A DNA stretch of 64,000 nt, from contig DIIC01000017.1 in NCBI GenBank assembly GCA_002420425.1, positions 76,052-140,051 of the forward strand. Reading direction: 5' to 3'. The DNA is from Proteobacteria bacterium UBA5680. Its GTDB lineage: Bacteria > Pseudomonadota > Gammaproteobacteria > Arenicellales > UBA5680. The translations under genes and the position numbers were made by a program. Shown here in pieces: positions 21,632 to 62,198 of this stretch. The notes under the pieces were generated by a model. The model saw only the letters and a program-made list of their open reading frames with translations. It was not told where the DNA came from and made no database searches. Positions within the stretch are counted from its first letter, which is position 1. Every line of letters starts with the position of its first letter.

Positions 21632-24600
21632 ATGAGCACACCAAGAACAACCATTATCGATGGGAATGAAGCAGCTGTCTGGGTGGCATACCTGACTAAT
21701 GAGGTGATTGCGATCTACCCCATCACACCCTCTTCGACAATGGGAGAGCTTGCCGATCAGTGGTCATCCGAAGGTCGTACCAACCACTGGGGGAGTGTTC
21801 CCAATATTACTGAAATGCAGAGCGAGGGGGGTGCATCTGGAGTCATTCATGGCGCGCTCCAGGCCGGTTCTCTGGCCACCACATTCACGTCCTCCCAGGG
21901 TCTGCTGCTGATGATCCCCAATATGTACAAAATTGCGGGTGAATTAACCCCAACGGTTTTTCATGTTGCTGCGCGGACGGTTGCTACTCACGCACTCTCC
22001 ATATTCTGTGATCACAGTGATGTCATGGCTGCGCGGACAACGGGTTTTGGGATTCTGGCTTCTGGATCCGTTCAGGAGGTGATGGATATGGCCCTGATCT
22101 CACAGGCTGCCACACTGGAGGGACGGATTCCACTTATTCATATGTTTGATGGCTTTCGAACATCCCATGAACTCAATCGGATCGTTATGCTAGAGAGTGA
22201 AACGGTAGAAGCGATGATTCCGAGGTCGTTGGTCCAGGCACATCGTGATCGCAGCCTGTCACCTGAGCATCCGGTCATCAGAGGAACGTCCCAGAACCCC
22301 GATGTTTTTTTTCAGGCTCGTGAGCAGGTCAATAGCTATTACCAGAGAATGCCTGAAGTGGTTCAAAAGGCAATGAACCATTTTGCCCAGTTGACAGGGC
22401 GTAAATACCGGTTATTTGATTATATTGGGAATAGTGATGCAAATCGGATTGTTATTCTGATGGGATCTGGGGCTGAGACGGTAGATGTGACGATTGACCA
22501 GATGAATGCAGCAGGGGAGAAGGTCGGCGCAGTCAAGGTCAGGCTCTTCCGTCCATTTGATTCAAAAGCATTGTTTGATGTGCTACCCAGATCAGTTAAG
22601 CAGATTGCAGTTCTTGACAGGACAAAGGAGCCGGGCGCTGAAGGTGAGCCATTATATAAGGATATTGTAACCGCGCTTGCTCAAAACCAGTCTAATCATG
22701 AGTTCGATCAGCAAATTAATGTCGTAGGTGGGCGTTATGGTCTCTCTTCAAAAGAGTTTACTCCAGGAATGGTGAAATCGATTTTTGATGAGCTTGCAAA
22801 ACCCGAACCAAAAAATGATTTCACAGTCGGAATCTATGATGACGTAAGCCATAAGAGCCTTGATTACGACCGCAATTATCGAGTCTCTGTTGTCAAAGGG
22901 AGTATGTCAGCCGTTTTCTATGGTTTGGGCAGCGATGGGACGGTCAGTGCCAATAAAAATACGATCAAGATAATCGGTGAAGAGACCGATAATTACGTTC
23001 AGGGTTATTTTGAGTATGACTCAAAGAAAGCGGGAGCAGTAACGATCTCTCACCTTCGTTTTGGGCCAGACCCTATTCGATCAGCCCATCTTGTTGAAAC
23101 CGGTGAGGCCGCTCTCGTTGCCTGTCACCAACCCCAGTTCCTGTTGCGCTACGATATGTTGGCACAGGCAGCAGAGGGGGCAATATTCCTTCTTAATTCC
23201 CCTGCTCCAGCTGAAGAGGTATGGGAAAGCTTGCCCAGACTCTATCAACAGGCGATCCTCGATAAACAGATTGAGCTTTATTTGATAGATGCCTATGCGG
23301 TTGCTCGCAAGACAGGGATGGGGGCAAGGATCAACACCATCATGCAAGCCTGTTTTTTTGCGGTTACCGGTATTCTTGAGACCAATAAAGCGATAGAAGT
23401 GATAAAGGTTGCTGTTGAAAAGAGTTATGGCCGCAAGGGCCGTAAACTCGTCAAGCGAAACCATAAGGCAATTGATGAGTCACTTCATCAACTTCATAAA
23501 ATTGATATACCGGAGTCTGTCACCTCGACACAAGAGCAACCACCAGCCGTATCAAAAAATGCACCCCCTTTTGTACAAGAGGTCACTGGTGAGATCATTG
23601 CGGGCCGGGGGAATGAGATACCTGTGAGCCTGTTTCCTGCTGACGGCACTTTCCCGCTTGGGACGGCGGCTTATGAAAAGCGTAATCTGGCATTGGCAAT
23701 TCCGGTTTGGGATACCGACCTATGTACTCACTGTGGAAAGTGCCCACTCGTCTGCCCTCATACGGCAATTCGAAGCAAAATATTTAACCAAAGCCTCCTG
23801 GTTGATGCCCCACGCTCATTTAAGTCAGTAGCAGTCAAAGGCAAGGATTTCCCCCAGGGCACCATGATCAGTTATCAAGTCGCGCCGGAGGATTGCACTG
23901 GCTGTGGGTTATGCGTTGAGGTTTGCCCAATAAGAAGCAAAGAGGAGCCTGACAAAAAAGCACTGAATATGTTGACCCAGGCTCCCCTTCTTGAAGATGA
24001 AAAAGAGAGCTGGTCTTTTTTTACCACAATTCCAGAGTCTGATCGTAGCCTAATCAAGACCTCGACCATAAAAGGGGCAATGTTGTTAGAGCCTTTGTTC
24101 GAATTTTCCGGGGCCTGTGTGGGTTGTGGTGAAACACCCTATATTAAGCTGGCTACTCAACTCTTTGGTGATCGAATGATTATTGCCAATGCTACGGGGT
24201 GTTCCTCGATCTATGGCGGCAATCTGCCCACTACGCCGTGGACGACTAATGATCAGGGAAGGGGGCCGGCCTGGAGTAACTCTCTGTTTGAAGACAATGC
24301 AGAATTCGGCCTTGGTTTCAGGCTCTCAATTGACCACCATGCCCTTGTAGCCCGACAGAAGTTAAGCAGTTTTAAAGAGCCTTTGGGAGAGGAGTTCTGT
24401 GATGCCTTGATCAATGCAGACCAGGCCGATGAGTCAGGTATATGGGAGCAGCGACAGCGAGTTGATCTTCTCAAGCAAACACTGAAAAAAATAGGGACCC
24501 CGGAGTCTGGTGAACTGGCTGATCTTGCAGATTATCTGGTTCACCGTAGTGTCTGGATTATAGGTGGAGACGGTTGGGCCTATGATATTGGATTTGGTGG

Positions 24601-25201
24601 ATTGGACCATGTCATGGCATCAGGAAAGAATGTCAATATTCTGGTTCTTGATACTGAGGTCTACTCAAATACGGGAGGCCAGACTTCCAAAGCCACTCCC
24701 CGTGGAGCAGTGGCTAAATTTTCAGCCGGAGGAAAACCATCAGGGAAAAAAGATCTGGCGATGATGGCCATGAGTTATGAGAATGTCTATGTCGCACAAA
24801 TAGCCTCAGGCGCCAAGGATGTCCAGACAGTTCGTGCCTTTCTTGAGGCAGAATCTTATGCGGGGGTCTCACTGATTATCGCTTATTCACCTTGTATTGC
24901 TCACGGTGTTGATCTAAAAAATGCCTTGCGACAACAAGAGCTGGCGGTAAAAAGTGGTCATTGGCCTCTGTTCCGATTTGATCCAAGGCGCAGTGAGCGG
25001 GGTGAAAACCCGCTGACTCTTGATTCAAAGGAGCCCTCTATCGCTTATCGTGATTTTATAGATACTGAGGCCCGATTTAGTTTTCTCGGGCGGACACGCC
25101 CAGAAATTGCAGAAGAGCATCTAAATAAGAGTCAGTCACAGGTTATTGCACGTTACCGCCACTACCAACAACTCTCTGAACTACAAGTTGAGGAAGATTG
25201 A
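21632..25201 (+). CDS. nifJ: pyruvate:ferredoxin (flavodoxin) oxidoreductase, single-polypeptide type
   Basis: 1189 aa. N-terminal YPITPSS. Two ferredoxin motifs, CTHCGKCPLVCP and CTGCGLCVEVCP. CVGCGETPY. TPP motif GGDGWAYDIG...LDTEVYSNTGGQ. Confidence 0.93.
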   Translation: MSTPRTTIIDGNEAAVWVAYLTNEVIAIYPITPSSTMGELADQWSSEGRTNHWGSVPNITEMQSEGGASGVIHGALQAGSLATTFTSSQGLLLMIPNMYKIAGELTPTVFHVAARTVATHALSIFCDHSDVMAARTTGFGILASGSVQEVMDMALISQAATLEGRIPLIHMFDGFRTSHELNRIVMLESETVEAMIPRSLVQAHRDRSLSPEHPVIRGTSQNPDVFFQAREQVNSYYQRMPEVVQKAMNHFAQLTGRKYRLFDYIGNSDANRIVILMGSGAETVDVTIDQMNAAGEKVGAVKVRLFRPFDSKALFDVLPRSVKQIAVLDRTKEPGAEGEPLYKDIVTALAQNQSNHEFDQQINVVGGRYGLSSKEFTPGMVKSIFDELAKPEPKNDFTVGIYDDVSHKSLDYDRNYRVSVVKGSMSAVFYGLGSDGTVSANKNTIKIIGEETDNYVQGYFEYDSKKAGAVTISHLRFGPDPIRSAHLVETGEAALVACHQPQFLLRYDMLAQAAEGAIFLLNSPAPAEEVWESLPRLYQQAILDKQIELYLIDAYAVARKTGMGARINTIMQACFFAVTGILETNKAIEVIKVAVEKSYGRKGRKLVKRNHKAIDESLHQLHKIDIPESVTSTQEQPPAVSKNAPPFVQEVTGEIIAGRGNEIPVSLFPADGTFPLGTAAYEKRNLALAIPVWDTDLCTHCGKCPLVCPHTAIRSKIFNQSLLVDAPRSFKSVAVKGKDFPQGTMISYQVAPEDCTGCGLCVEVCPIRSKEEPDKKALNMLTQAPLLEDEKESWSFFTTIPESDRSLIKTSTIKGAMLLEPLFEFSGACVGCGETPYIKLATQLFGDRMIIANATGCSSIYGGNLPTTPWTTNDQGRGPAWSNSLFEDNAEFGLGFRLSIDHHALVARQKLSSFKEPLGEEFCDALINADQADESGIWEQRQRVDLLKQTLKKIGTPESGELADLADYLVHRSVWIIGGDGWAYDIGFGGLDHVMASGKNVNILVLDTEVYSNTGGQTSKATPRGAVAKFSAGGKPSGKKDLAMMAMSYENVYVAQIASGAKDVQTVRAFLEAESYAGVSLIIAYSPCIAHGVDLKNALRQQELAVKSGHWPLFRFDPRRSERGENPLTLDSKEPSIAYRDFIDTEARFSFLGRTRPEIAEEHLNKSQSQVIARYRHYQQLSELQVEED

Positions 25202-25203
25202 TT

Positions 25204-30740: not shown

Positions 30741-30747
30741 TTAAATA

Positions 30748-31206
30748 ATGAGCCTCCGTGAGAGAGCATTGGATTACTTGCAAGCGCACAAGGTGCTTTC
30801 ACTGGCGACATTTGGAGATCAAGGGGTTTGGGCCTCACCCCTCTATTATGCCAGTGATGATTTCAGTTTGTATTTTCTCTCTTCGCCCACCACTCGTCAC
30901 TGCCAGAATATCGAATCTGATCCAAGAGTAGCGGCAACGATCTATGAGGATTATGATGACTGGAAAGAGATCAAAGGGATTCAAATAGAAGGAGAGGTCA
31001 AGACTATCACAGGCTCAAAACAATTAAGTGTAATCGCTCGCTATACCGCCAAATTCCCTTTTATTGCAATGCAAAAGCCAACACAGATCAAACAGGCAAT
31101 GGAAAATATCTGCTGGTACTCACTCACCCCGACTCGTCTTTTTTTTATTGATAATTCAATTCGATTGGGCCATCGAACAGAAGTTCATCTGGATAGCCAG
31201 GGGTAG
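30748..31206 (+). CDS. pyridoxamine 5'-phosphate oxidase family (FMN-binding split barrel) protein
   Basis: 152 aa. Reads ALDYLQAHKVLSLATFGDQGVWASPLYYASDDFSLYFLSSPTTRHCQNIESDPRVAATI...IKGIQIEGEV. Confidence 0.75.
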   Translation: MSLRERALDYLQAHKVLSLATFGDQGVWASPLYYASDDFSLYFLSSPTTRHCQNIESDPRVAATIYEDYDDWKEIKGIQIEGEVKTITGSKQLSVIARYTAKFPFIAMQKPTQIKQAMENICWYSLTPTRLFFIDNSIRLGHRTEVHLDSQG

Positions 31207-31207
31207 T

Positions 31208-32503: not shown

Positions 32504-32665
32504 ATTATTGATGTTAATGGCTCAAAAAAAATCGGAAGACCAATGTTTAAGGGTAACCCCGATCAATATGTTAAGGTCTAAGAAGGTTCTTCAACCCTTT
32601 GCAGGCCAGATAAAGAGGATGGATGGATTTACTCATTTATCCATAAAAACCTAAAGGAGGTAGTT

Positions 32666-44880: not shown

Positions 44881-44989
44881 CGGCGGTTAAAACAAAATTA
44901 ACAAGTGAAGCAAGGGTGTTCGACTATCTTCCTTCTGGTTGCCGACGCCAGAGAGCAGTCGGCAGAGAGAGCAGAATAATCAGAGAGGG

Positions 44990-45172
44990 TTACTCTTCCC
45001 TATGACACTTTCCATTGATGCAGGAACAACTCTCGCCGCACCCCTCGCCCTCTTCTTTGTGAATACCAAGTTCTGGGTGGCGCTTTGAGAAGTTGCGTGT
45101 GATCGACTGCACCATCAGCCATGCAAACAACAGGACGAGGATGATTAAAGCAGCAGTGATCACTTTTAACAT
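44990..45172 (-). CDS. single-TM Cys-rich mini-protein (NqrM-like / FeoB-associated Cys-rich type)
   Basis: 60 aa. Reads MLKVITAALIILVLLFAWLMV...EGEGCGESCSCINGKCHREE. Starts 3 nt after the rnfA stop. Confidence 0.6.
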   Translation of the reverse strand: MLKVITAALIILVLLFAWLMVQSITRNFSKRHPELGIHKEEGEGCGESCSCINGKCHREE

Positions 45173-45175
45173 AGG

Positions 45176-45757
45176 TTAACTCCCGAGCCCGGCAAAACCC
45201 ATGAACGAGAGCGAGAGCAGGCCGGCGAGCATAAGGCTGAGGACGGCCCCCTGGCTGACATCGGGAACAAAAGAGAGATCAAGGCGTTCCCGCAGCCCAG
45301 CCATCAGCATAATGGCAAGGGCGAACCCACCGCCAGCGCCCAGACTGTAGACCAGAGATTGAAGAAATGAGTAGTCGCGGAAAGTCTGGAAGAGGGCTAG
45401 TCCAAGAATGGCGCAGTTGGTGGTGATCAGGGGAAGAAATATCCCCAGCGCCCTAAAGAGGGTAGGGCTGAATTTTTTCATCACCATCTCAACCAGTTGC
45501 ACCGCAGAGGCGATGACCGCAATGTAGGCGATCAGCCTGAGGTACTCCATGTCGAGTGCTACCAGCAGAATATTGAGACCAAAGGCACACAGTGAACTGA
45601 CAAACATGACAAAGGTGGTGGCCAGTCCCATATTCCAGGCAGTATTGAGTTTCGCCGATACGCCGAGGAAGGGACAGATTCCAAGGAAGAGGCTGAGCAC
45701 AAAATTATTGATAATGAGTGCATTGAGAAAGATAAATGTCAGGGAGTCAGTGCTCAT
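45176..45757 (-). CDS. rnfA: Rnf complex subunit A
   Basis: Reads MSTDSLTFIFLNALIINNFVLSLFLGICPFLGVS...LITTNCAILG. ATG at 45757, preceded by an AAGGAGG SD. The ORF is open to 45847. Confidence 0.9.
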   Translation of the reverse strand: MSTDSLTFIFLNALIINNFVLSLFLGICPFLGVSAKLNTAWNMGLATTFVMFVSSLCAFGLNILLVALDMEYLRLIAYIAVIASAVQLVEMVMKKFSPTLFRALGIFLPLITTNCAILGLALFQTFRDYSFLQSLVYSLGAGGGFALAIMLMAGLRERLDLSFVPDVSQGAVLSLMLAGLLSLSFMGFAGLGS

Positions 45758-46409
45758 GGTAACCCGCCTCCTTCTCTTGAGATGTTGGTTTCCCTTCCTT
45801 GCGCAAGCGCATCCAGGAGAAGAGGAGCAACCAGGTTCCAAGCACAAAGAAACCGCCCGGCGGAAGTATCATGATTGCCCAGGGTTGGAACGAGTCGCCG
45901 AAGATATTGATGCCGAAGAGGGCGCCGCTTCCAAGAAGTTCACGAACCAGCCCCAGACAGAGCAGAGCGATAGTAAAGCCAAGACCCGTTCCCAGCGCGT
46001 TGATGATGGCTTTCGAAGGGCGGTGCTTTGAAGCATAGGATTCTGCCCGGCCCAGGATAATGCAGTTGACCACGATCAGTTGAATAAAGGCACCCAGTGC
46101 CCGGTAGAGTTCGAGACTGATCGCCTGTATGACGTAGTCGACGATGGTAACAAAAGTGGCGATGATGACAATATAGGTGGCGATGCGCACCTGTTTTGGA
46201 ATTCGATGGCGCAACAGAGAGACCAGAATACTGGAGCATACCAGGACGAAGGTGGTGGCAATGCCCATGGCGAGGGCATTGGCCCCTGAGTTGGTAACGG
46301 CCAGAACCGGACACATTCCAAGGAGCATCACGAAGACGGGGTTCTCTTCCCAGATGCCACGGGTAAAGGTCTCGAGGGTGATCGGCTTATTGGGATGCAG
46401 ATCGACCAT
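45747..46409 (-). CDS. rnfE: Rnf complex subunit E
   Basis: 220 aa. Reads NPVFVMLLGMCPVLAVT...IQLIVVNCIILGRAE. Confidence 0.9.
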   Translation of the reverse strand: MVDLHPNKPITLETFTRGIWEENPVFVMLLGMCPVLAVTNSGANALAMGIATTFVLVCSSILVSLLRHRIPKQVRIATYIVIIATFVTIVDYVIQAISLELYRALGAFIQLIVVNCIILGRAESYASKHRPSKAIINALGTGLGFTIALLCLGLVRELLGSGALFGINIFGDSFQPWAIMILPPGGFFVLGTWLLLFSWMRLRKEGKPTSQEKEAGYHEH

Positions 46410-47089
46410 TATGATTCTTCCTGAGTCAGTTTTTGCAGTTGTTGCATAATCAGTGGGAATGTTTTTTGGGCACTGTTGTTTAACATCCGCCCGATTGCCT
46501 TTGAGGAGACGGTTGCACCTGAAATGGCATCAATCTCCCATGGGTTTGATTTCTTGCCATGCTTAACGGTGACAATCTCGTTATTGAGTCGTTCTCCGGT
46601 GGCATTGAGTCGGCCATCAAGCGCTTCAAAGTTGACAAGAAATTCGGGATCAGTCTCAATTTTATCTCCAAGCCCGGGCGTCTCCTTGCTTTCAAGAACT
46701 GTGATTCCGGTAATACAGCTGCACTTTGGTGAGTAGCCGTAGAGTATTCTTATAATATCCTGATAGCCCTGTGCTGATGCCTCTAGAGCGACACCTGTGA
46801 GCTTCCCTGATAGATCATATCCCGCGTAGACTCTTGGGCCGTCCGTCTGCTGGTCATCAATCCGTTCAAGCCCTTCTGCAGTGAGTGCAAAGTTGATTCT
46901 CGAACGCGCTCCGGGGAGGACGGTAAAGATGGCACGTTCAAGCGCTATCCGGCGGTTTTCCAAAATGGCCGGCAGAGTGAGCTGATAGACAAGAACAACC
47001 AGTACGCCTGAGATCAGGGCAACAACACCAAGGGTTGCTATCAGTGAGAGCGCTGACGGCTGGGTAGAGTGTGGGGAGGGTGAATTCAC
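46409..47089 (-). CDS. rnfG: Rnf complex subunit G (FMN-binding)
   Basis: 226 aa. N-terminal TM. Flavinylation motif DAISGATVSSKA. Confidence 0.88.
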   Translation of the reverse strand: MNSPSPHSTQPSALSLIATLGVVALISGVLVVLVYQLTLPAILENRRIALERAIFTVLPGARSRINFALTAEGLERIDDQQTDGPRVYAGYDLSGKLTGVALEASAQGYQDIIRILYGYSPKCSCITGITVLESKETPGLGDKIETDPEFLVNFEALDGRLNATGERLNNEIVTVKHGKKSNPWEIDAISGATVSSKAIGRMLNNSAQKTFPLIMQQLQKLTQEES

Positions 47090-48165
47090 GATTCCTCTTT
47101 TTGCCGACGATTGAACAGCGATCTTCGCTCTTTACCATAGGCTCTTGGCTGGGTAAGCGATGCAATGAGAGGGGAGGCGGCATTACCCAGCAGAATCGCA
47201 TACATAATGCCTTCAGGGAGGCCACCGAAGAAGCGGATAGTGACGGTGAGCACTCCTATCAGAATGGCATAACTCCACACCCCCAGAGGAGTAAGCGGTG
47301 AAGCCACCATGTCTGTGGCCATAAAGATAGCGCCGAGCATCATTCCGCCTGAAAGAAGAGTAAACAGTGGGGGGGGATAGAGATCGGGGTTGATCAGATA
47401 GAAGAGTGCGCTAAAAAGGGCAGAAGAGAGAAGGATGCCGACAGGAATACGCCAGTCAAGCATTTTTCGAAAAGCAAGATAGAGGCCGCAGGCCATGATC
47501 AACAGCGCAGAGGACTCTCCTGCCGAACCTGAGGTCATTCCCATCAGTAGGTCTATCGTGCTGGTCTGGATCTGTTCAAATTTTTGGAGTGCAAGGGGTG
47601 TGGCGCCAGTGAAACCGTCAATGGCATTGGCGTTGATCCACTCTGCGGGAGAGATGGGCTTGAGAAAAGGCAGGGTCAAAGTGGAGGGGACAAACTCACT
47701 AAACCGGCCGGGGATGAATGCAGGGGTCCAGGTGGTGATGGCTACAGGAAATGCAGCCTGGACAAAGGCACGGCCTACCAGTGCCGGGTTGAGGATGTTG
47801 TATCCCAGGCCGCCAAAGATGACTTTACCCAGTGCGATGGCAATAAACCCGGCAACGGCTGCCATCCAGAGTGGAAAACCCGGGGGCAGGGTGAGGGCGA
47901 GGAGAAGGCCTGTAATCACCGCACTGAAGTCATGCAGTGATGAAGCCCGGTCGCTCACTCTCATAAAGAGATGTTCAGTGGCAAGGCAACTGGCTGTGGT
48001 AACAACAATAAGCGCAAGCGCACTCAAACCAAACTGATAGATGCCAAACAGCGAGATTGGCACAAGGGCATAGACCACATTACGCATGATTTGAGAGACA
48101 CTCGGCGCATAGTGAATATGGGGAGAAGTGCGTATCTCAACACGAGCATTTAGGCGTTTTTTCAT
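47086..48165 (-). CDS. rnfD: Rnf complex subunit D
   Basis: 359 aa, polytopic. Contains DGFTGATPL and the NqrB/RnfD pattern. Confidence 0.9.
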   Translation of the reverse strand: MKKRLNARVEIRTSPHIHYAPSVSQIMRNVVYALVPISLFGIYQFGLSALALIVVTTASCLATEHLFMRVSDRASSLHDFSAVITGLLLALTLPPGFPLWMAAVAGFIAIALGKVIFGGLGYNILNPALVGRAFVQAAFPVAITTWTPAFIPGRFSEFVPSTLTLPFLKPISPAEWINANAIDGFTGATPLALQKFEQIQTSTIDLLMGMTSGSAGESSALLIMACGLYLAFRKMLDWRIPVGILLSSALFSALFYLINPDLYPPPLFTLLSGGMMLGAIFMATDMVASPLTPLGVWSYAILIGVLTVTIRFFGGLPEGIMYAILLGNAASPLIASLTQPRAYGKERRSLFNRRQKEES

Positions 48166-49511
48166 GCGGTTATCAGCTGTTCACGATTGATGGCTTTGGC
48201 AATTCTAAAGTACTGTACCAGTGGGATGGAGGAGGGGCAGACATAACTGCAGCAACCGCATTCAAAACAGTCATTCAGATGAAACTCCTCTTCCATCGCC
48301 TGGTATTGACGTTTGGCCGCCAGAAGACCAAGTTGTGACGGATTGAGCTTTAGAGGACAGGCCTGGAGACATCTGCCACATTTTATACAGGGGTCTGCAT
48401 TTTTTGGGTGCTCATCTATCTTGCGCTCTTCAGCGAGGACAATAATCCCCCCCACTGCTTTTGTCACCGGGACATCGAGCGAGGCCACTGAGGAGCCCAT
48501 CATTGGACCACCGAGTATAAGGTGGTTGGCCGTTCCGGAGAATCCAACGTAGTCAAGAAGCTGGCGAATGGGGGTGCCCAGAGGAGTGAGATAGTTGCCC
48601 GGTTTTTTAACACCCGGCCCGGTTACGGTCACCACACGTTCAATCAGGCCCCGCCTTAACGGCATGAGTGTGCCCAGTTGGGCGAGGGTAGCTACGTTAT
48701 GGACAATCACCCCAACCTGATAGGGAAACCCTCCGGAGGGGACCTCGCGACCGGTCAACGTGGTTATCAGCATTTTTTCAGATCCCTGGGGATATTTTGT
48801 TTCGAGCAGCCTTGCTGAAATTGGGCTCTTGTCAGGGAGTCGCATCTTGATCGCATGGAAGGCGTCTCCTTTATTGTTCTCAAGGCCGATGATCGCCTGT
48901 TTTGCCCCTGATAACTTCATCACAAGCTGAATGCCGGAGATTATCTCATCGGCGTGTTCGATCATTAAACGGTGGTCCGCAGTGAGGAAGGGTTCACACT
49001 CACAGCCATTGGCGATTACGGTATCGATAATCGTCCCCGGAGGAGTCGCGAGTTTGACGTGGAGGGGGAAGGCAGCCCCTCCAAGACCAACAATACCGGT
49101 ATCCTGGACGGCTGTGATCAACTCATTTCTATCGAGCCGGCTATAATCCTGCGGCGCCCCATAGAGCACTTTCTGCCCCGCTCCAGGATGGGGCCGAACA
49201 ATAATGCTTTTGGTTTTGGGACCTTTAGCCGTCGGTGTGAGTTCAATCCCGGCAATAACACCGGTTACCGGTGAGTGCATCGGAACGGAGACAAATCCAC
49301 TCGCTTTAGCAATGGGCTCACCCCTGACAACCTCCTGCCCCCTATGGACAATGGGTTCGGCCGGTGCCCCGATGTGCTGTGAGAGAGGAATAATCAACTC
49401 ATCAGCAAAAGGGAGCCGTTTTATCGGCAGCCTGTTGGTGAACTTATTCCCTGGCGGGTGTATGCCGTGTGGAAAACTGTTGCGCCACGCCCGGTGAATA
49501 AGTCCTGCCAA
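48162..49511 (-). CDS. rnfC: Rnf complex subunit C (NADH-binding, 2x[4Fe-4S])
   Basis: 449 aa. Motifs GLGGAAFP, CIKCGRCLQACP and CFECGCCSYVCPS. TTG start, with a GGAGA SD 6 nt upstream. Located 33 nt after the giant gene. Confidence 0.9.
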   Translation of the reverse strand: MAGLIHRAWRNSFPHGIHPPGNKFTNRLPIKRLPFADELIIPLSQHIGAPAEPIVHRGQEVVRGEPIAKASGFVSVPMHSPVTGVIAGIELTPTAKGPKTKSIIVRPHPGAGQKVLYGAPQDYSRLDRNELITAVQDTGIVGLGGAAFPLHVKLATPPGTIIDTVIANGCECEPFLTADHRLMIEHADEIISGIQLVMKLSGAKQAIIGLENNKGDAFHAIKMRLPDKSPISARLLETKYPQGSEKMLITTLTGREVPSGGFPYQVGVIVHNVATLAQLGTLMPLRRGLIERVVTVTGPGVKKPGNYLTPLGTPIRQLLDYVGFSGTANHLILGGPMMGSSVASLDVPVTKAVGGIIVLAEERKIDEHPKNADPCIKCGRCLQACPLKLNPSQLGLLAAKRQYQAMEEEFHLNDCFECGCCSYVCPSSIPLVQYFRIAKAINREQLITA

Positions 49512-49544
49512 TGCAATTCTCCAATAACTTAAATTTTCTATCGA

Positions 49545-52500
49545 CTACTGAAATTTTGCGGCTCGTTTGATCAATTTATCAACACCTTTTTCAACCGAAT
49601 TGAAGGGTGTTCCAGGATGAATACAGCCAGCAGTACATTTTTCTGCAGCACGAACAATATCTTTATAGGAGCCACCCTGTGGATCAAGAACATAGGCAAG
49701 GTTCTGATCATCATAGGAGAAGATTTTGGGGTTGATGTCAATACACTCATCACAAGTGGTGCATTCTGATGTTTCAATCCAGACGGGTTCAAATCCAGTA
49801 TCTGTTGAAGCGGGTGTCGAACCGTTCAATCCAGAACTCGTAGAACCGGCCACGCCCTCTGCAAGGGCGGCTGAGAGTTGTGATGCGTTCCCATTGGCGG
49901 TCATGGCAACAAGGCCTGATGAAATTTTTTCGATCATCTCCATCCTGACCGTATTGGCAATCTGATCGGCATCTACAGCTTCATTGATCCCAGAGATCGA
50001 TTTGAGCTGTCGCCAGAAATGCCGTCGTTCCTCTGTGGAGGCGACCAGTTCAGCAGAAGGGACAACTCGCACCAGTTCATTTTTCTTCCCTATGGTCCAG
50101 ATATAGGGGATAAGGTCTTCCCGGTCATCACTCTCCAGATCAAGAAAATCAACCAGTGGGATCATGTTCTCGTCATCCCAGGTCTCTTTCGGGGGGATAC
50201 GAAACTGTTTTCTGAACCGACCTTCGGTGACCGCAAAATCAGCAAAGGTGAAGGGGAGTTCCAGCTTCTGCTCGGAACCTTCTTCTTCCTTATAGGTGAG
50301 GGAATAGACCGGCCAATCATCATCTAAGGCCGGGTTGCCCTCTAGATCAATACACTCCTCCCAGGTCTCACCACTATCAGGATCAAACCGAAGGAGTGGA
50401 TAGGCCCTCGATTCAACAGCCATTTTGCTCTGCAACTCTGATGCATCATCACCAACGCCGTGTTCGGGCTGGCAGACGGAATAGATATTGAATAGCGCGG
50501 GGCGACGTGAATTGAGGCCATCGATATAGCCTTCAAGAAGATGGGTGATATTGGAGATCGATCCTTGTAGTACGTAGGATGTTCGATGGGCCATGCCAAT
50601 CAGTGACATCTCCTTGCGGATCTCCTCTTTACCGTGTTGGGCAGAGCCATAAGGGGTCATGTCGGCAACCTGACTGATGAATCCTGAAGTACAGGCCTGG
50701 CCGCCGGTATTGGAGTAGACCTGGGTATCGAGTACCAGAACCTTGATTGGCATTCCTGACATCATCATCCTCGAGAGATTTTGAAATCCGATGTCATACA
50801 TTGCACCATCACCGCCGATAGAGACCACTGGCGGGCAGAGGAGGAACTCCTCTTCGGAGAACTGGCGCCAGTCAAACATGGTGAAAAAGGGATCATGCTC
50901 TTTGGGGTTATATTTTCCTTCGAGTTCAAGTTCGGCCATCCGGATGGCCTTGAACCCTTCTGCCATCTTGACCATGTGTCCTTCAAAAAGACCCATCGCA
51001 ACCGAGGGTGAATCCTGAAAGAGATGGCTGGTCCAGGGGAAAGGATAGGGGTTATAGGGGAAGGTGGATCCCCAGACAGAGGTGCAACCGGTAGCATTGA
51101 CAATACCCATCGCAGAACGACCCTGATTGGTGTTGCCATCGGTATAGAGCCAGCGCAGGTGTTTGAGTGTATTCAAAAGCTGAGTGACCCACTGAACCCA
51201 CTCACTGTCAAGCGGCTGACTGCTGTCGTGTTCCAGTGCAGAAGAGAGCTCGGAGAGGGTGAGGTCTGACTCCTGGTGATTGCTGATCACTCCCTGGATG
51301 GTCTCCGTATCTCCAAGATCCATCCCTTTGGCCATCTGCAGACGGATATGGTTGTCGAGGCGATTGATCAAATCATCAATTTTATCGATATGATTGCGAA
51401 CGCGCGGTTGCATCAAAGTGGTCATGGTAGCGGTAAAGAGATGGATGACGGTTTTTTCACCGCAACCCAGACACGCTCCATCCCCGCATATCATCGAGTC
51501 GTAAGCCTGTTTATTCAGGAGCAGTGTCTCCAGTGCACCGATCTTCTCATCAAGATCATCGATGCGGCTGAATTGGGGTGAGGTAGTGGGAAGGTCAAGC
51601 CAGTACTCCCAGTTCTTTTTCAGGGAGGCAACCGCATCCTCAGTTTGGGTAACGGTAACCAGTGCGTCATCATCACAGACGGAGACACACTCCATACACC
51701 CTTTACAGGTGTAGGGGTTGACGGTGATTGAAAAGAGTCCCCCACTGCCCTTGCCCCGTTTTTCAAGGACAGACCAGTAGGGTTTGGTGATTGAGAACTG
51801 GAAGTCAACGAGTTGATCGCGAAACTGATTAAACTCCTGTTCCAGCAGTTGTTTGTCCTCAACTTCAAGTACCGTCTCGTTGAGAGTGACGTCAATCGCC
51901 TGGTCGATGGAGGCTCTTACCGGTGTCCCGGGGCCATCCTCTTCACTAATTAGAGTTCGGAGTTTTTTCTCAACAGTACGCAGTCCACGACGAAGATGTT
52001 TGGTGGTTACCCCCTGGCGTTCAACCCGGCGGACAGTCGTCTCAAAGACCTCACTGACAGTATTGACCAGTCCCGGAATAGCACTGTCCGGACAAACGGT
52101 ATAACAGTCACCACAGGCGGTGCAGTTATCGGCAATCCATTCGGGGTATTCGAAGCGGATCTGAGTCATGTCTCTGAATACACCCGTTGCCGCTGGCACC
52201 AGGCTGAGGCCGATGTGGGGATCAACAAGGTTGTCGCTTCCTTTGCCGCGAGAGTAGAAGTTTCCGGTCTGTTCCCAGAAGCGGTGAATGTCAGTACGCA
52301 CTTCACTGCTTGTGGGTTGTTGCCTGAGCAGAATGGGCATGGCTGGAATCACCCGGAGCTCATCACCCTCTGGCAGGATCACCGGCTTGTCGGTGATCTC
52401 CCGGGTCTCATCAAAGCCTCGAGTCACAACCCGCATATTGTCTTCAACAATCGTTCGTCCCTTGGTTCCGAATTTGCTCTCCATCTGGTTGCGAATCGCC

Positions 52501-54488
52501 TGAAAGAGGGATTTGCGGTTGAGGTTGGCGGATTCCATGACCTTTGATGCAGCGAAAAAGGCCCCTTGAAAGGCGTTACCTTGCATGCGGAATTGAAGTT
52601 CAATATCAGACGCCTCTTCTCTGGCAATCTTGAAGGCATCCACAAAGAAGACCCTGATCTCATTATCAGTAATATACTGCCTGGCCGAGAAGGGGAGGGA
52701 GCGCCAGAGGAGATCGGCATCATCCGTATCACTCTGGATAATAAAGACTCCACCTTTGGTAAGACCGTTAAGGGGGTTGGAGTGCTTAAAGACATTGGGG
52801 TCTGGTGAGAGCACCACATCAACATAGATGTATTCACTATTGACCCGAATGGGTTCGGGTGCAGCAGAGAGATAGTAGGTCGTTGGTTGTCCTTTCTTCT
52901 CTGAGCCGTATTTTGGGTTGGCCTTGATGTGGTAGTCGAGGAGTTCATAGAGCGTCAGTGCCAAATTCTTGCCAGTGGTAATGGCGCCCCATCCTCCTAC
53001 TGAATGGAGGCGAACGGTTATGCATCCTTCAGGCATAAGGTTGGGGTTTTCACTCCCCTTGAGGGAGAGTGAGCCTATTTCGGGATAGGCCTCACGCAAT
53101 TGATCCTGATAGATCTCCTGTTTGGGTGTATCGGGATCCTTGCTCAGAAAGTCGACCGAGAGATAGAAGAATTTCTTTTTTTCACCATCAGGAAGCATAT
53201 TCTCCACCGCACCAATTATCCCTTCAGGCTGGAGATCACGACTGCCCAATCCAAAAGAGGCAGAGTAGAGGGGCGGCATATCCCCAGGTTTGTTAAATGC
53301 CGGATAGGCGGGATGGGGGAGAGACTCCCTGCGGTCTACAAAATTTTCAGTGCACTTTGCCAGACTTGCCCGAATTTCACGAATCAGTGGCAGATCTTCA
53401 GCCAGCGGCTGGTCGGTTCGCTCAAGGACAACAACCCCTTTACGACCCTTAAGGAGTGTACCGACAAGCTCTCCCGGGAAGGGGCGAAACATAGTGATGT
53501 TGATGACACCAATTTTGAGTTTTCGGGTCTTTCTAAGGTAGTCGGCCACCGCTTCTGCAGTACAGAGAACGCTGCCCTGGGCGACGATCAGATAGTCCGC
53601 ATCATCGGTTCGATAAGAGGAGACTCGCTGGTATTGCCTTCCGGTGAGCTGATAGAACGCTTCCATCGCCTCTTCGGTGATCTCTGTAAGGTGGTCAAAG
53701 AAGAAAGGGCGTTGGGCCGCCACTGCCTGCATATAGGCATCCTGGTTCTGTACTGTTCCGGACTGCAGTGGGTTATCGACATCCCAGACAGTGGGTATGC
53801 GACGGCGTTGTGGGCCATAGACCAGGCGCTGGGCCGGTGTGGGGGTCTCAATAATGTCCTCAGGTCTTCCAAGGAAGGTGTCGATGAGCGCTCTTTCAGG
53901 AAGGAGGAGAGACTCAATCAGATGGGTGGTCAAAAAGCCATCCTGGCCGACAATGCCGGGGGTCAGGGCGTGTTCAGCGATTTTGTGGGCGATAATGTTG
54001 AGGTCGCAGGCCTCCTGGGCGCTCTTGGCCATCACCTGAAAGAAGCCGGTGTCGTCTACAGCATGGTAGTCGTCATGGCCGGCATGGACATTGAGGCTCG
54101 CCTTGGTGATCGCCCGGCAACCCACATTGAGAATATAGGGGAGACGCTTGCCCACAGCCGCATAGAGAGACTCATGCATATAGGCGATACCCTGGCCTGA
54201 AGAGAAGTTGGTGGCTCTGAGACCGGTCATCGAGAGACCGGCTGTTACCGCGGCCGCCGCATGCTCGCCCTCAGGCTCGATAAAGATCAGGGGGCGACCG
54301 GAAATATTGATATGGCCTTTGCTGCGCTCTTCTGCCCAATACTCGCCCATCTGGGTTGATGGGGTGATGGGATAGGCGCCAGCACCATCCGTAGATTCTC
54401 GCTCACACATAATGACGGCTGTATTCCCGTCCATAGCCTGTTTAACACCTGGAAAGGGGAAGGTTTTGCTGGCTTTTTTCATCATCAT
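49545..54488 (-). CDS. PFOR-like 2-oxoacid:ferredoxin oxidoreductase, expanded 1647-aa form with a tethered C-terminal ferredoxin domain
   Basis: Collinear with nifJ motifs: GAYPITPSTQMGE; CTACGDCYTVCP ... CKGCMECVSVCDDDA; CLGCGEK; NATGC; GGDGAMYDIG...LDTQVYSNTGGQ. Adds a Ser/Gly/Ala/Thr linker and a final CTTCDECIDINP...C(TAG)CIHPG single-cluster ferredoxin pattern. Confidence 0.85.
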   Translation of the reverse strand: MMMKKASKTFPFPGVKQAMDGNTAVIMCERESTDGAGAYPITPSTQMGEYWAEERSKGHINISGRPLIFIEPEGEHAAAAVTAGLSMTGLRATNFSSGQGIAYMHESLYAAVGKRLPYILNVGCRAITKASLNVHAGHDDYHAVDDTGFFQVMAKSAQEACDLNIIAHKIAEHALTPGIVGQDGFLTTHLIESLLLPERALIDTFLGRPEDIIETPTPAQRLVYGPQRRRIPTVWDVDNPLQSGTVQNQDAYMQAVAAQRPFFFDHLTEITEEAMEAFYQLTGRQYQRVSSYRTDDADYLIVAQGSVLCTAEAVADYLRKTRKLKIGVINITMFRPFPGELVGTLLKGRKGVVVLERTDQPLAEDLPLIREIRASLAKCTENFVDRRESLPHPAYPAFNKPGDMPPLYSASFGLGSRDLQPEGIIGAVENMLPDGEKKKFFYLSVDFLSKDPDTPKQEIYQDQLREAYPEIGSLSLKGSENPNLMPEGCITVRLHSVGGWGAITTGKNLALTLYELLDYHIKANPKYGSEKKGQPTTYYLSAAPEPIRVNSEYIYVDVVLSPDPNVFKHSNPLNGLTKGGVFIIQSDTDDADLLWRSLPFSARQYITDNEIRVFFVDAFKIAREEASDIELQFRMQGNAFQGAFFAASKVMESANLNRKSLFQAIRNQMESKFGTKGRTIVEDNMRVVTRGFDETREITDKPVILPEGDELRVIPAMPILLRQQPTSSEVRTDIHRFWEQTGNFYSRGKGSDNLVDPHIGLSLVPAATGVFRDMTQIRFEYPEWIADNCTACGDCYTVCPDSAIPGLVNTVSEVFETTVRRVERQGVTTKHLRRGLRTVEKKLRTLISEEDGPGTPVRASIDQAIDVTLNETVLEVEDKQLLEQEFNQFRDQLVDFQFSITKPYWSVLEKRGKGSGGLFSITVNPYTCKGCMECVSVCDDDALVTVTQTEDAVASLKKNWEYWLDLPTTSPQFSRIDDLDEKIGALETLLLNKQAYDSMICGDGACLGCGEKTVIHLFTATMTTLMQPRVRNHIDKIDDLINRLDNHIRLQMAKGMDLGDTETIQGVISNHQESDLTLSELSSALEHDSSQPLDSEWVQWVTQLLNTLKHLRWLYTDGNTNQGRSAMGIVNATGCTSVWGSTFPYNPYPFPWTSHLFQDSPSVAMGLFEGHMVKMAEGFKAIRMAELELEGKYNPKEHDPFFTMFDWRQFSEEEFLLCPPVVSIGGDGAMYDIGFQNLSRMMMSGMPIKVLVLDTQVYSNTGGQACTSGFISQVADMTPYGSAQHGKEEIRKEMSLIGMAHRTSYVLQGSISNITHLLEGYIDGLNSRRPALFNIYSVCQPEHGVGDDASELQSKMAVESRAYPLLRFDPDSGETWEECIDLEGNPALDDDWPVYSLTYKEEEGSEQKLELPFTFADFAVTEGRFRKQFRIPPKETWDDENMIPLVDFLDLESDDREDLIPYIWTIGKKNELVRVVPSAELVASTEERRHFWRQLKSISGINEAVDADQIANTVRMEMIEKISSGLVAMTANGNASQLSAALAEGVAGSTSSGLNGSTPASTDTGFEPVWIETSECTTCDECIDINPKIFSYDDQNLAYVLDPQGGSYKDIVRAAEKCTAGCIHPGTPFNSVEKGVDKLIKRAAKFQ

Positions 54489-54591
54489 ATCTGGTGTGTC
54501 CTTTTACAAAATCAACCCTGATAAAAAAACAAACTGACAAGCGTGTCTGAAACGGCACTCGGTGCAGGGTAAATCTTGGATATTTCCTATG

Positions 54592-54631
54592 TATTAATCA
54601 AACCAATTATTTCAATTCTTATGATTAAATT
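54592..54631 (-). promoter_or_regulatory. conserved AT-rich element upstream of the giant PFOR-like gene (copy B)
   Basis: 30 of 40 ungapped identities with 55611-55650, including the exact blocks AATTATTTCAAT and ATGATTAAA. Lies 104-143 nt upstream of the ATG at 54488. Confidence 0.45.
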
Positions 54632-54681
54632 ATGCAATACTATATAATGAGGTGGGTGCCTTGAGCGTTCATTGCAAGGGG

Positions 54682-55560
54682 TTATCTGATAACGGGCATC
54701 GGCTCTTTTCGAATTACCCGTTTTGCCATATTTCCCTTGACGACCCCTTTACGGCTATCAAGCCAGACAATGGCCCCCGTTGGGCAGCGTTCAATAGCTA
54801 TTTTCGAGGCCAGGTCATTTTTTTCATAATCGATTTGGGCCAGATTGGCCTGAATGGTGATCAACCCTTCAGGGGCATCGGCGGCGCATCGACTGCAGGC
54901 ATTGCAGACGACTTCACATTCCGCTTCCGCCGCATCGCAGGTATCCTCGTTTTTACACGCGATCCAGAGGCGATGGCTGACAGGTTGAAGGGAGAAGAGT
55001 TCCTTGGGGCAGACTTCGACACAGTCATTGCAGGCGGTACATTTGAGTGGATCCACCATTGGTAGTGAGAATTTGTTCATTTCAATGGCGCCAAAATCAC
55101 ATACATCCATGCAGTCACCAAAGCCAAGACAACCCCATGTGCACCCCTTACCACCTCCAGAGACAAGATTGGCGGCCCGACAGGTCTCCATCCCCTGATA
55201 GTTTGCACGGGTATAGGAAACGTGAGTTCCGCCGGAACAGGCAAGGCGGGCTACATATTTTTCATGTTCTCCTACCTCAACACCGAGAAAATCAGCGATA
55301 GTGTGGGTCATCTCATTGGAATTTACGGTGCATTTCCCCGGATCGGTATCACCTTTGACCATTGCTTCAGCAAAGGGTCGGCACCCAGGAGTGCCACACG
55401 CCCCGCAATTGGCGTGAGGGAGCATATCCTCCACCTCCTCAATTCGAGGATCTTCGTAGACATAGAGTTTGCGGTTTGCAATCGCCAGAATACCAGCCAG
55501 CACCACACCCAGGGTGGCAAGAAGGCTGCCTGCAATAGCAATGTTAATCAGACTGTCCAT
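54682..55560 (-). CDS. rnfB: Rnf complex subunit B (membrane-anchored polyferredoxin)
   Basis: From ATG 55560: MDSLINIAIAGSLLATLGVVLAGILAI (TM anchor). RnfB Fe-S domain CGACGTPGCRPFAEA. Further Cys clusters follow, including CTACNDCVEVCP. The ORF is open to 55656, but that part is AT-rich and matches a non-coding element elsewhere. Confidence 0.82.
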   Translation of the reverse strand: MDSLINIAIAGSLLATLGVVLAGILAIANRKLYVYEDPRIEEVEDMLPHANCGACGTPGCRPFAEAMVKGDTDPGKCTVNSNEMTHTIADFLGVEVGEHEKYVARLACSGGTHVSYTRANYQGMETCRAANLVSGGGKGCTWGCLGFGDCMDVCDFGAIEMNKFSLPMVDPLKCTACNDCVEVCPKELFSLQPVSHRLWIACKNEDTCDAAEAECEVVCNACSRCAADAPEGLITIQANLAQIDYEKNDLASKIAIERCPTGAIVWLDSRKGVVKGNMAKRVIRKEPMPVIR

Positions 55561-55610
55561 AATTTTCTGCGTTAGGGCTTCTACTTGGCTAATTTTTTGG
55601 GCTACACTAG

Positions 55611-55650
55611 TATTTATCAATGTAATTATTTCAATGAAAATGATTAAAAA
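55611..55650. promoter_or_regulatory. conserved AT-rich element in the rnfB/apbE divergent intergenic region (copy A)
   Basis: TATTTATCAATGTAATTATTTCAATGAAAATGATTAAAAA. Matches copy B as described. Lies 51-90 nt upstream of rnfB ATG 55560 and 10-49 nt upstream of apbE ATG 55660. Confidence 0.45.
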
Positions 55651-55659
55651 GGACAATAC

Positions 55660-56700
55660 ATGATCAGAAGAACCCTTTTTGCTGCACCCACTCTATTATG
55701 GGTGGGCTGTTACCTGCTACTCGGGGGGTGTACTCCTACCACCCAAGAATTTACTCGAGCCGTTATCGAAGGCAAAACCATGGGCACCTACTATAAGGTG
55801 GTTCTCTCAGTTGAGGAGGGAAGAGAGGTCGGACCTTCACTTAAAGAGGGGATCGATGCTGTGCTTGAAAAGGTCAATGACCAGATGTCGACCTACAGAA
55901 AAGAGTCTGAGCTCTCCCGCTTCAACCGCTCTCAATCCACCGAGTGGATAACGGTCTCGGAGGATCTGGTAGACGTCGCTGATGCAGCGGCAAAGATCAG
56001 TGAACTCAGCCACGGTGCTTTTGATGTGACGGTGGGTCCTCTGGTCAATCTCTGGGGTTTTGGACCGGTAAAAAAGAAGGACTTTATCCCCAGCGACCAG
56101 GAGATTGAAGAGGCAAAAAAGAGGGTGGGCTACCAACAGCTCTCAACCCGGAAGGTGGACCCGGCATTGCGCAAGAGCAGCCCAGGGCTCTATGTTGATC
56201 TCTCGGCGATTGCCAAGGGTTTTGGTGTCGACATGGTGGGTGAGCTTCTTGAATCAGAGGGATTTAACCACTACCTCGTCGATATCGGCGGTGATATGAA
56301 AGCGGTGGGCAACAACCCCGATGGACAGGGGTGGCGGATTGGCATTGAACGCCCCGACGCAGAGGGGAGAGAGATTGAGAAACTGATTGAAGTGAAAAAT
56401 TTCGGTGTTGCCACATCGGGCGACTATCGCAACTATTTTGAGCGCGATGGCCAACGCTACTCACACACCATCAATTCCGTGACGGGCAGGCCGATCACCC
56501 ATCGACTCGCATCGGTAACCGTCGTCGCACCTACGGCCACAGAGGCCGATGGAATGGCGACCGCGATCATGGCGCTTGGCCCTGAACAGGGGCTTAAACT
56601 TGCCAAAGAGCAGGGACTCGGTGTCTTTTTGCTGGTAAGGGAGGGAGAAGGCTTTAGCGAGAGTATGAGCCCCGGTTTTGAGCAGTTTCAAACAGAGTAG
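55660..56700 (+). CDS. apbE: FAD:protein FMN transferase ApbE (lipoprotein)
   Basis: 346 aa. Lipobox LLLGGC. Contains GKTMGTYYKV...MSTYRKESELSRFN...AKGFGVD...GVATSGDYRNYF. Confidence 0.88.
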   Translation: MIRRTLFAAPTLLWVGCYLLLGGCTPTTQEFTRAVIEGKTMGTYYKVVLSVEEGREVGPSLKEGIDAVLEKVNDQMSTYRKESELSRFNRSQSTEWITVSEDLVDVADAAAKISELSHGAFDVTVGPLVNLWGFGPVKKKDFIPSDQEIEEAKKRVGYQQLSTRKVDPALRKSSPGLYVDLSAIAKGFGVDMVGELLESEGFNHYLVDIGGDMKAVGNNPDGQGWRIGIERPDAEGREIEKLIEVKNFGVATSGDYRNYFERDGQRYSHTINSVTGRPITHRLASVTVVAPTATEADGMATAIMALGPEQGLKLAKEQGLGVFLLVREGEGFSESMSPGFEQFQTE

Positions 56701-62189: not shown

Positions 62190-62198
62190 CAGAATATT

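Follow-up and report, generated by a model that had tools for sequence, protein, structure and literature searches.

A giant PFOR-type protein with a tethered ferredoxin, encoded within an rnf operon, as a probable dedicated partner of the Rnf complex

Why should a gene for a pyruvate:ferredoxin oxidoreductase (PFOR)-type protein of 1647 residues lie between rnfB and rnfC? The locus is part of a 64 000-nucleotide stretch of contig DIIC01000017.1 from Proteobacteria bacterium UBA5680 (GCA_002420425.1); this whole stretch is called the window, and all window coordinates count within it (Table 1). The answer we favour, which we regard as probable though well short of certain, is that the giant protein is a dedicated and probably docked partner of Rnf, acting either as a reversible, ion-coupled pyruvate:NAD+ oxidoreductase or as an Rnf-driven pyruvate synthase, with a tethered ferredoxin that shuttles to RnfB. 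PFORs, Fer4_13 ferredoxins and Rnf are each known; features that our literature search did not turn up are the split ferredoxin domain, the insert at the proximal cluster, the tethered ferredoxin, the near-universal character of the operon position and a large set of relatives that are probably dead as enzymes. The identical protein sequence is recorded in metagenome-assembled genomes of Arenicellales (Gammaproteobacteria).

The giant protein carries domains I, II, III, V and VI in PFOR order on a single chain. Pfam matches are POR_N (residues 36-273), PFOR_II (297-379), POR (498-693), Fer4 (782-804), TPP_enzyme_C (1220-1272) and Fer4_13 (1572-1624). BLAST and MAFFT alignments with the canonical NifJ of the same window (21632..25201, 1189 residues) are collinear, as the initial annotation of the locus had judged by eye from the core motifs. 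The best sequence matches in the PDB are the PFORs of Moorella thermoacetica (6cin, E = 3e-81) and Desulfovibrio africanus, and the NCBIfam ranking places PFOR and PorA above VorB, KorA and the oxalate and phenylglyoxylate enzymes. Identity to the window NifJ is 25%, and on this figure a recent NifJ duplicate was rejected as an origin of the gene. The protein had been described as a PFOR paralogue; it is no close paralogue of NifJ, nor an isolated case, but one member of a family encoded in at least 588 genomes (scanned as one genome per species). Judged by its sequence, it is a member of a separate PFOR-like clade and not a NifJ/YdbK equivalog.

Relative to NifJ the protein is expanded in three main places, and measurement upholds what had been estimated for each. 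In domain V one CxxCxxCxxxC motif begins at residue 789 and the other at 928, which puts them 139 residues apart (estimated as ∼ 140), compared with 57 in NifJ (starts at 698 and 755; estimated as ∼ 57). The second CxGCGE Cys and the Cys in NATGC are 126 residues apart, compared with 25 in both NifJ and the D. africanus PFOR (Cys815-Cys840), where ∼ 130 and ∼ 27 had been read; the inserted stretch is modelled as helices. The tail beyond the thiamine pyrophosphate (TPP) motif had been called roughly doubled, and 420 residues follow the GDG aspartate versus 209 in NifJ. Part of the C-terminal extension (residues 1436-1529) aligns to the NifJ tail, with an insertion. Further extra segments lie in domain I (∼ 205-235) and at the domain II/III junction (∼ 384-404 and ∼ 446-467), and two segments of NifJ domain VI are missing from the giant protein.

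Both inserts are present in all 115 aligned orthologues, with 124-129 and 118-132 residues between the flanking Cys. Their presence throughout, at near-constant length, shows that they are not alignment artefacts, a possibility against which the initial annotation had itself warned. Their conservation (top-residue frequency 0.62-0.67) is below that of the core (∼ 0.8). We modelled residues 700-1647 (948 residues) with AlphaFold2 (mean predicted local distance difference test score, pLDDT, 81; predicted template-modelling score 0.84). Insert 1 is modelled as helices 811-824, 832-849, 857-871 and 876-893, most 10-residue blocks having pLDDT 92-97, and insert 2 as one 47-residue helix (1009-1055, mostly within the insert) followed by three shorter ones. 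A model of the inserts only (residues 800-1135, pLDDT 76) had no PDB fold match at E ≤ 0.001, the best being generic long-helix proteins at E ∼ 1. For the 948-residue model, Foldseek returned the PFORs 7plm and 6ciq (E ∼ 1e-14) and D. africanus ferredoxin I, and nothing further that was informative; the inserts depress the TMq of the PFOR matches to ∼ 0.4. Both helical inserts are structural elements specific to the family. They may form a docking or scaffolding surface, or may shield the clusters.

The chain ends in what had been read as a low-complexity linker followed by a small single-cluster ferredoxin, and both parts of that reading hold. The linker (∼ residues 1530-1566) is 25-56 residues long in the 115 orthologues, poorly conserved (top-residue frequency 0.38) and rich in Ala (28%) and Gly (19%); model confidence drops to pLDDT < 50 for residues 1545-1563. 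Beyond it conservation rises to 0.80. The Fer4_13 match of the domain (residues 1572-1624) scores 29.6 bits against a gathering cutoff of 24.5, its sequence matches PDB entry 1dax (E = 1.8e-6), and its compact model (pLDDT ∼ 65-92) superposes on D. africanus ferredoxin I (1fxr_A) with a template-modelling (TM) score of 0.86 and a root-mean-square deviation of 0.7 Å over 58 columns (Foldseek). C1576, C1579, C1582 and C1618 are found in 100% of the 115 orthologues. The fourth ligand is C1618, in 'EKC', and not the Cys of 'CIHPG' (C1622), which had been included in the pattern and is kept in 51% of orthologues. From sequence and model the domain is predicted to carry a fourth [4Fe-4S] cluster. 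Past the ferredoxin fold, the chain closes with a basic helix of conserved sequence (residues 1636-1647, window 49548-49583), ...DKLxKRAxKF/YQ. R1642, A1643 and K1645 do not vary among 25 aligned sequences, and the helix is shared with an 840-residue paralogue described below. This KRAxKF/YQ helix may be a docking motif.

The initial annotation, sound on the expansions, missed the genetic setting. The window operon has the order rnfB-PFOR-rnfCDGEA, with all six rnf genes on one strand, and this setting points to the probable electron acceptor or donor for the tethered ferredoxin. The giant gene is separated from rnfB by 193 nucleotides and its stop from rnfC by 33; rnfC and rnfD overlap by 4 nucleotides, and the remaining rnf genes likewise overlap. 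As listed, the rnfA open reading frame (TTG start at 45847) shares 101 nucleotides (45747-45847) with rnfE, so the real start is probably further downstream. The apbE gene beside rnfB has counterparts adjoining several related operons. A promoter and terminator scan over 44800-56000 gave counts at shuffle background and was uninformative on operon structure.

The same arrangement is found far beyond this genome. More than 120 full-length orthologues, 1622-1680 residues long and 65-71% identical, came out of a protein search; their sources include Beggiatoaceae, Sedimenticola, Thiodiazotropha, Ectothiorhodospira, SAR324, Verrucomicrobia and Bryobacterales. Cultured carriers include Thiocapsa roseopersicina, Marichromatium gracile, Allochromatium palmeri, Ectothiorhodospira magna, Halorhodospira abdelmalekii, Thiorhodospira sibirica, Sedimenticola hydrogenitrophicus, Sulfurisoma sediminicola, Shewanella atlantica and Methylotuvimicrobium sp. 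KM1, and the Solemya velum symbiont is also in the list. A gene fusion or an assembly artefact was rejected, because the length of 1622-1680 residues recurs in more than 100 independent sequences.

Gene order was scored in the 80 best loci. The gene directly upstream is rnfB in 70 of the 73 loci with enough flank, and directly downstream rnfC follows in 65 of 66, succeeded by rnfD, G, E and A. These loci span Gamma-, Beta- and Alphaproteobacteria, Acidobacteriota, Verrucomicrobiota, Hydrogenedentota, Calditrichaceae and Myxococcota. Exceptions to the order are rare: in Methylotuvimicrobium sp. KM1 (L079) rnfB lies downstream of rnfA and not upstream of the giant gene, at L004 ∼ 5.4 kb separate the giant gene from rnfC, and at L048 and L061 no upstream rnfB was detected. 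One Chromatiaceae locus (L036:3214-8151) has a second, divergent rnf cluster (∼ 30-43% identity to the window Rnf) immediately upstream of its rnfB-PFOR-rnfCDG...A operon, so that two Rnf types stand side by side in one genome.

The synteny was noted in 2014 in the Solemya velum symbiont, where Dmytrenko et al. suggested that Rnf receives electrons from pyruvate (PMC4287430), and a transcriptome of Endoriftia lists an uncharacterized 'PFOR-like' isoform (PMC11636981) that may or may not be the same gene. Beyond the 2014 mention, our literature search found no account of the architecture, the dead relatives, the near-universal operon position or the biochemistry. NCBIfam yielded no model specific to the family, and database names are '2-oxoacid:acceptor oxidoreductase family protein' or PFOR. 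That the architecture might already belong to a characterized enzyme family, a caveat of the initial annotation, is thus not what these generic names and the literature indicate: the family is widespread, generically named and without a characterization that we could find.

More distant relatives may tell something about what the operon position is for. An exhaustive HMMER search with residues 700-1647 gave many proteins of 1400-1780 residues with 26-51% identity, from which 71 full-length representatives were analysed; these are sequence clusters and not genomes, and the intact clade collapses into few of them because it evolves slowly. All eight domain V Cys are kept in 67 of the 71, and the split spacing is 130-150 in nearly all. 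Only five have both the TPP/substrate residues and the proximal-cluster Cys intact, and 50 lack the TPP site and the proximal cluster alike (YPITP, E75, GDG, N1260 and the four proximal Cys are lost). A ferredoxin tail, ending in a ...KRAxKF(Q) helix, is present in 15-17 representatives, depending on how tails are scored. All seven distant relatives that were looked up (∼ 29-51% identity) follow rnfB, and in four of them rnfC comes next. The majority of the distant relatives (P0135-P0284; loci L081-L086) are, as far as their sequences tell, probably pseudo-PFORs that are no longer enzymes. Retention of a dead protein of ∼ 1500 residues in rnf operons suggests a structural or electron-wire role on Rnf and, by extension, physical association of the whole family with the complex. 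At one of these loci (P0135, a dead form with tail that matches the C-terminal half of the window protein at 51% identity) an IS1 transposase gene (L085:13053-13810) stands where rnfC is expected, and the operon seems to be interrupted after the pseudo-PFOR.

Three dead forms share an operon that consists of korA-like and korB-like genes, a gene for a protein of 840-870 residues, rnfB, the pseudo-PFOR and rnfCDGEA. The 840-residue protein (L083:4636-7158) is paralogous to the giant protein over residues ∼ 974-1646 (26% identity, E = 2e-65). Its TPP motif is degenerate, and it has an Ala/Pro linker and a Fer4_13 tail that ends LLKRAARY. Since proteins of this kind bear the same linker, Fer4_13 tail and C-terminal KRAxxY/F helix, the tethered ferredoxin is a device that recurs in the setting of these Rnf operons. 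Some operons of the intact type (L029, L066 and L084) are likewise flanked by KorAB-like genes. A bolder version of the partnership would make the giant proteins integral seventh subunits of a distinct and widespread Rnf class, whose inserts clamp onto RnfB/RnfC while the ferredoxin serves as a swinging arm, and whose dead scaffolds recruit KorAB through the 840-870-residue protein; the intact assembly would be a pyruvate:NAD+ oxidoreductase that sits in the membrane and translocates ions, or a pyruvate synthase driven by the gradient. We put this forward tentatively and would sooner bet against it than for it; if true, it would amount to a modular docking system that links 2-oxoacid oxidoreductases to Rnf.

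Several observations weigh against the giant protein being a docked, pyruvate-specific partner of Rnf. TIGR02176, the PFOR equivalog model and its top NCBIfam match, scores 410.3 bits, below the cutoff of 911.35. The EKR domain (PF10371, domain IV) gives no match at E ≤ 0.01, compared with 84.5 bits in NifJ, and the corresponding region aligns to NifJ only with insertions. With a sub-cutoff score and no EKR match, the substrate call depends on a few pocket residues. Taken by itself, co-transcription with rnf would suit a soluble enzyme too. The carriers include phototrophs, aerobes, microaerophiles and facultative anaerobes, and the enzyme may work in either direction. In purple sulfur bacteria and oxygen-exposed lithotrophs, reverse Rnf is the usual route to reduced ferredoxin. 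Because such organisms are among the carriers, gradient-driven pyruvate synthesis seems at least as plausible as oxidation.

One alternative is a soluble enzyme. It would be a free PFOR isoenzyme that is merely co-transcribed with Rnf and reduces or oxidizes the general ferredoxin pool, which Rnf would equilibrate with NADH on its own; the inserts and tail would form an internal fourth relay or, in the manner of domain VII of the D. africanus PFOR, a shield against oxygen or solvent, and not a shuttle to RnfB. Two systems that share a pool should be selected for joint expression as well, which fits the operon data, and shielding would be useful to the many carriers that are aerobes or microaerophiles. 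A shielding cap, however, needs no invariant four-Cys site on a disordered, variable linker of 25-56 residues. Pool-linked enzymes should associate with rnf more loosely, whereas from phylum to phylum the giant gene hardly ever leaves its place between rnfB and rnfC. That dead relatives persist in the same slot makes no sense for a soluble metabolic enzyme. We therefore think the soluble isoenzyme unlikely. For docking on the Rnf complex, the support is indirect and consists of the rnfB/rnfC slot together with the dead paralogues retained there.

What, then, would the enzyme act on? We mapped the giant protein onto the D. africanus PFOR (DaPFOR) by the functional residues listed in PMC5020499, and by the TPP and cluster ligands of that structure. 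Thr31 and Arg114 of DaPFOR, which contact the substrate carboxylate, align with T42 (YPITP motif) and R125, and Glu64 (TPP activation) with E75. In the methyl pocket Leu121, Ala219, Ile843 and Asn996 correspond to L132, V246, V1138 and N1260. N1260 is also part of the TPP/Mg motif, as is D1227 (Asp963), and the proximal-cluster ligands Cys812, 815, 840 and 1071 become C1006, C1009, C1135 and C1339. Met1202 of DaPFOR domain VII has no counterpart. T42, E75, R125, L132, V1138, D1227 and N1260 are invariant in the orthologues, V246 is mostly Val, and the 12 core cluster Cys (the four proximal ligands and the eight of domain V) occur in 100% of them. Invariance of catalytic and core Cys residues among orthologues that are 60-71% identical points to purifying selection on catalysis, and the giant protein is apparently a catalytically competent PFOR-type enzyme.

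The initial annotation had held that the substrate cannot be read from the sequence. That is too strict for the pocket, whose residues are conserved or conservatively replaced, and it stands in so far as specificity is judged from few residues. The pocket is compatible with pyruvate, which we infer to be the substrate. An Rnf-coupled enzyme for another 2-oxoacid (2-oxoglutarate, a branched-chain or aromatic 2-oxoacid, glyoxylate or oxalate) would accommodate the low equivalog score and the distance from NifJ; the window already encodes a canonical NifJ, so that a second enzyme might serve a different substrate, and one distant operon (L084) adjoins leucine-catabolism genes. Yet T42, R125, L132, V246, V1138 and N1260 are in keeping with the narrow pyruvate pocket of DaPFOR (PMC5020499), and the aligned positions show no additional basic residue that could bind a distal carboxylate. 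PFOR and PorA are the best family matches, and the CoA-dependent domain III (POR) is present, unlike what oxalate would require. A different substrate is in our view quite improbable. It is very improbable indeed that the window copy lacks catalysis and serves Rnf only as a structural or electron-wire subunit, as the 50 of 71 relatives without TPP site and proximal cluster in rnf operons might suggest, given that YPITP, E75, R125, GDG, N1260 and the 12 core Cys are invariant in the window protein and in every 60-71% identical orthologue examined.

If the giant protein is a dedicated Rnf partner, the path of the electrons can be proposed. Working oxidatively, the enzyme would use TPP and CoA to decarboxylate pyruvate and so release two electrons, which would pass to the proximal cluster (C1006, C1009, C1135, C1339), then to the two clusters of the split domain V, and from there to the fourth [4Fe-4S] cluster in the C-terminal ferredoxin domain. 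Swinging on its linker of 25-56 residues, this domain would hand the electrons to RnfB, and Rnf would deliver them to NAD+ at RnfC while Na+ or H+ is moved across the membrane. The conserved cluster site, the disordered linker and the recurrence of both on a second protein are our reasons for casting the tethered ferredoxin as the shuttle between the distal cluster of domain V and RnfB. The chain would be reversible: an ion gradient and NADH could drive the conversion of acetyl-CoA and CO2 to pyruvate with no low-potential electrons lost to a free ferredoxin pool.

Table 1. Positions of the features described. Coordinates are those of the window unless a locus is named; aa, amino acids of the giant protein or length of the product.
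Feature	Position	Strand	Basis
Giant PFOR-type 2-oxoacid:ferredoxin oxidoreductase, 1647 aa, domains I-II-III-IV-V-VI + C-terminal extension + linker + ferredoxin	49545..54488	-	Window list of open reading frames; Pfam, NCBIfam, NifJ alignment
Domain V, first CxxCxxCxxxCP motif, aa 786-802; C789, C792, C795, C799	52083..52133	-	Pfam; four Cys in 100% of 115 orthologues
Insert 1, aa 807-915, four-helix block between the domain V cluster motifs	51744..52070	-	NifJ alignment, model
Domain V, second CxxCxxCxxxC motif, aa 925-941; C928, C931, C934, C938	51666..51716	-	Alignment; 100% of orthologues
Insert 2, aa 1020-1125, helical, between proximal-cluster ligands C1009 and C1135	51114..51431	-	NifJ alignment, model
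TPP/Mg motif GGDGAMYDIG...DTQVYSNTGGQ, aa 1225-1264; D1227, N1260	50697..50816	-	Pfam TPP_enzyme_C; invariant in 115 sequences
C-terminal extension, aa 1436-1529, small strand-and-helix segments, then long helices	49902..50183	-	Alignment, model
Low-complexity Ala/Gly/Ser/Pro linker, aa 1530-1566, predicted disordered	49791..49901	-	Orthologue alignment, model
Predicted single-[4Fe-4S] ferredoxin domain, aa 1567-1647; C1576, C1579, C1582, C1618	49548..49790	-	Pfam, PDB, Foldseek
rnfB, 324 aa, ferredoxin-binding polyferredoxin subunit, first operon gene	54682..55656	-	Pfam PF04060 FeS + Fer4 dicluster
rnfC, 449 aa, NAD(H)-binding subunit	48162..49511	-	Pfam RnfC_N, Complex1_51K, SLBB, Fer4
rnfD, 359 aa	47086..48165	-	Pfam NQR2_RnfD_RnfE, E 2.7e-106
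rnfG, 226 aa	46409..47089	-	Pfam FMN_bind
rnfE, 220 aa	45747..46409	-	Pfam Rnf-Nqr, E 7.6e-66
rnfA, 223 aa as listed	45176..45847	-	Pfam Rnf-Nqr, E 2.5e-55
apbE, 346 aa, flavin transferase maturing RnfG/RnfD-type subunits, divergent from rnfB	55660..56700	+	Pfam ApbE, E 1.4e-93
Ten-gene korA/korB-rnf operon	L083:1723-12623; L086:1207-16961; plus one further locus		

Other genes of the window were noted in passing. Downstream of the window NifJ (25198-34513, plus strand) lie a dihydroorotate-dehydrogenase-like gene and then PPDK_N, UbiD-family, HAD-hydrolase, AMP-binding (CoA-ligase-like) and PEP-utilizer genes, a set reminiscent of the genes for phenylphosphate synthase and carboxylase in anaerobic phenol metabolism. 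These are followed by an aldehyde:ferredoxin oxidoreductase homologue (34750-36960, plus strand, 736 residues, AFOR_N and AFOR_C) that has a weak ThiS-like C-terminal segment. A MoeA gene is found at 19230-20456. A soluble NAD-linked formate-dehydrogenase-like cluster occupies 57823-63188 on the minus strand, with a 906-residue molybdopterin subunit (Fer2_4, NADH-G_4Fe-4S_3), a 549-residue Nuo51-type FMN/NADH subunit and FdhD.

If the proposed partnership is true, the interconversion of pyruvate and acetyl-CoA would be wired to NADH and the membrane potential in hundreds of species, with no free ferredoxin between them. The carriers concerned include purple sulfur bacteria, chemosynthetic animal symbionts, iron and sulfur oxidizers, a methanotroph and abundant marine Arenicellales. 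Run oxidatively, the system would save the ∼ 180 mV that the pyruvate dehydrogenase complex wastes; run reductively, it would explain how pyruvate can be made from acetyl-CoA and CO2 despite oxygen and with no photochemical reduction of ferredoxin. Low-potential electrons would stay within the complex, and 'extra' rnf clusters would gain a concrete role. The genome paper of Allochromatium vinosum calls the role of Rnf there 'entirely unclear' (PMC3368242). For annotation, 'PFOR' in the giant-protein clade should not be equated with NifJ, and the majority of its distant members are probably no enzymes. A self-contained PFOR-ferredoxin-Rnf module, if such it is, would be attractive for the engineering of CO2-fixing pathways.

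Among known systems the closest is the homodimeric PFOR (NifJ/YdbK; 1b0p from D. africanus, 6cin from M. thermoacetica), which like the giant protein has domains I-VI on one chain and shares with it the TPP/Mg motif, the YPITP Thr and the Arg, and three [4Fe-4S] clusters bound by the same 12 Cys. The giant protein differs by the ∼ 85-residue four-helix split of domain V, the ∼ 100-residue insert at the proximal cluster, ∼ 210 extra C-terminal residues with a predicted fourth cluster, and its obligate slot in an rnf operon. Domain VII of the D. africanus enzyme is also a C-terminal extension past domain VI that alters the surroundings of the clusters (PMC5020499, PMC12337175). That domain is an arm of ∼ 60 residues without a cofactor, whereas the extension of the giant protein consists of a linker and a whole ferredoxin domain. 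D. africanus ferredoxin I (Fer4_13; 1fxr, 1dax) has the same fold as this domain and the pattern CxxCxxC...C(P/T)xxCIH, with 33% identity over 58 columns; it is a free protein of 64 residues, whereas the domain of the giant protein is fused and has the extra basic helix (KRAxKFQ). Small ferredoxins of this type are natural acceptors of the D. africanus PFOR.

All six subunits of the Rnf complex (RnfABCDGE), known from electron cryo-microscopy of the Clostridium tetanomorphum complex, are encoded in the window operon, RnfB being the point of ferredoxin entry and exit. Described Rnf complexes use soluble ferredoxin or flavodoxin, and in the Rnf literature examined we found no system that includes a 2-oxoacid oxidoreductase gene lodged between rnfB and rnfC. 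The pyruvate:NADP+ oxidoreductase (PNO) of Euglena and Cryptosporidium is a PFOR with a C-terminal fusion to its acceptor, so that pyruvate oxidation ends in pyridine nucleotide. Its fusion partner is a flavodoxin/FAD/NADPH reductase module, and PNO is soluble and has no ion coupling. A PNO-type fusion was rejected for the giant protein, which has no flavodoxin, FAD_binding or NAD_binding Pfam match and whose tail is Fer4_13. An analogy to the proposed swinging domain is the lipoyl domain of 2-oxoacid dehydrogenase E2, a small carrier whose lipoyl-lysine moves acyl groups and electron pairs between active sites on a flexible linker rich in Ala, Pro and Gly; the tethered ferredoxin is not homologous to it and would carry single electrons on an Fe-S cluster.

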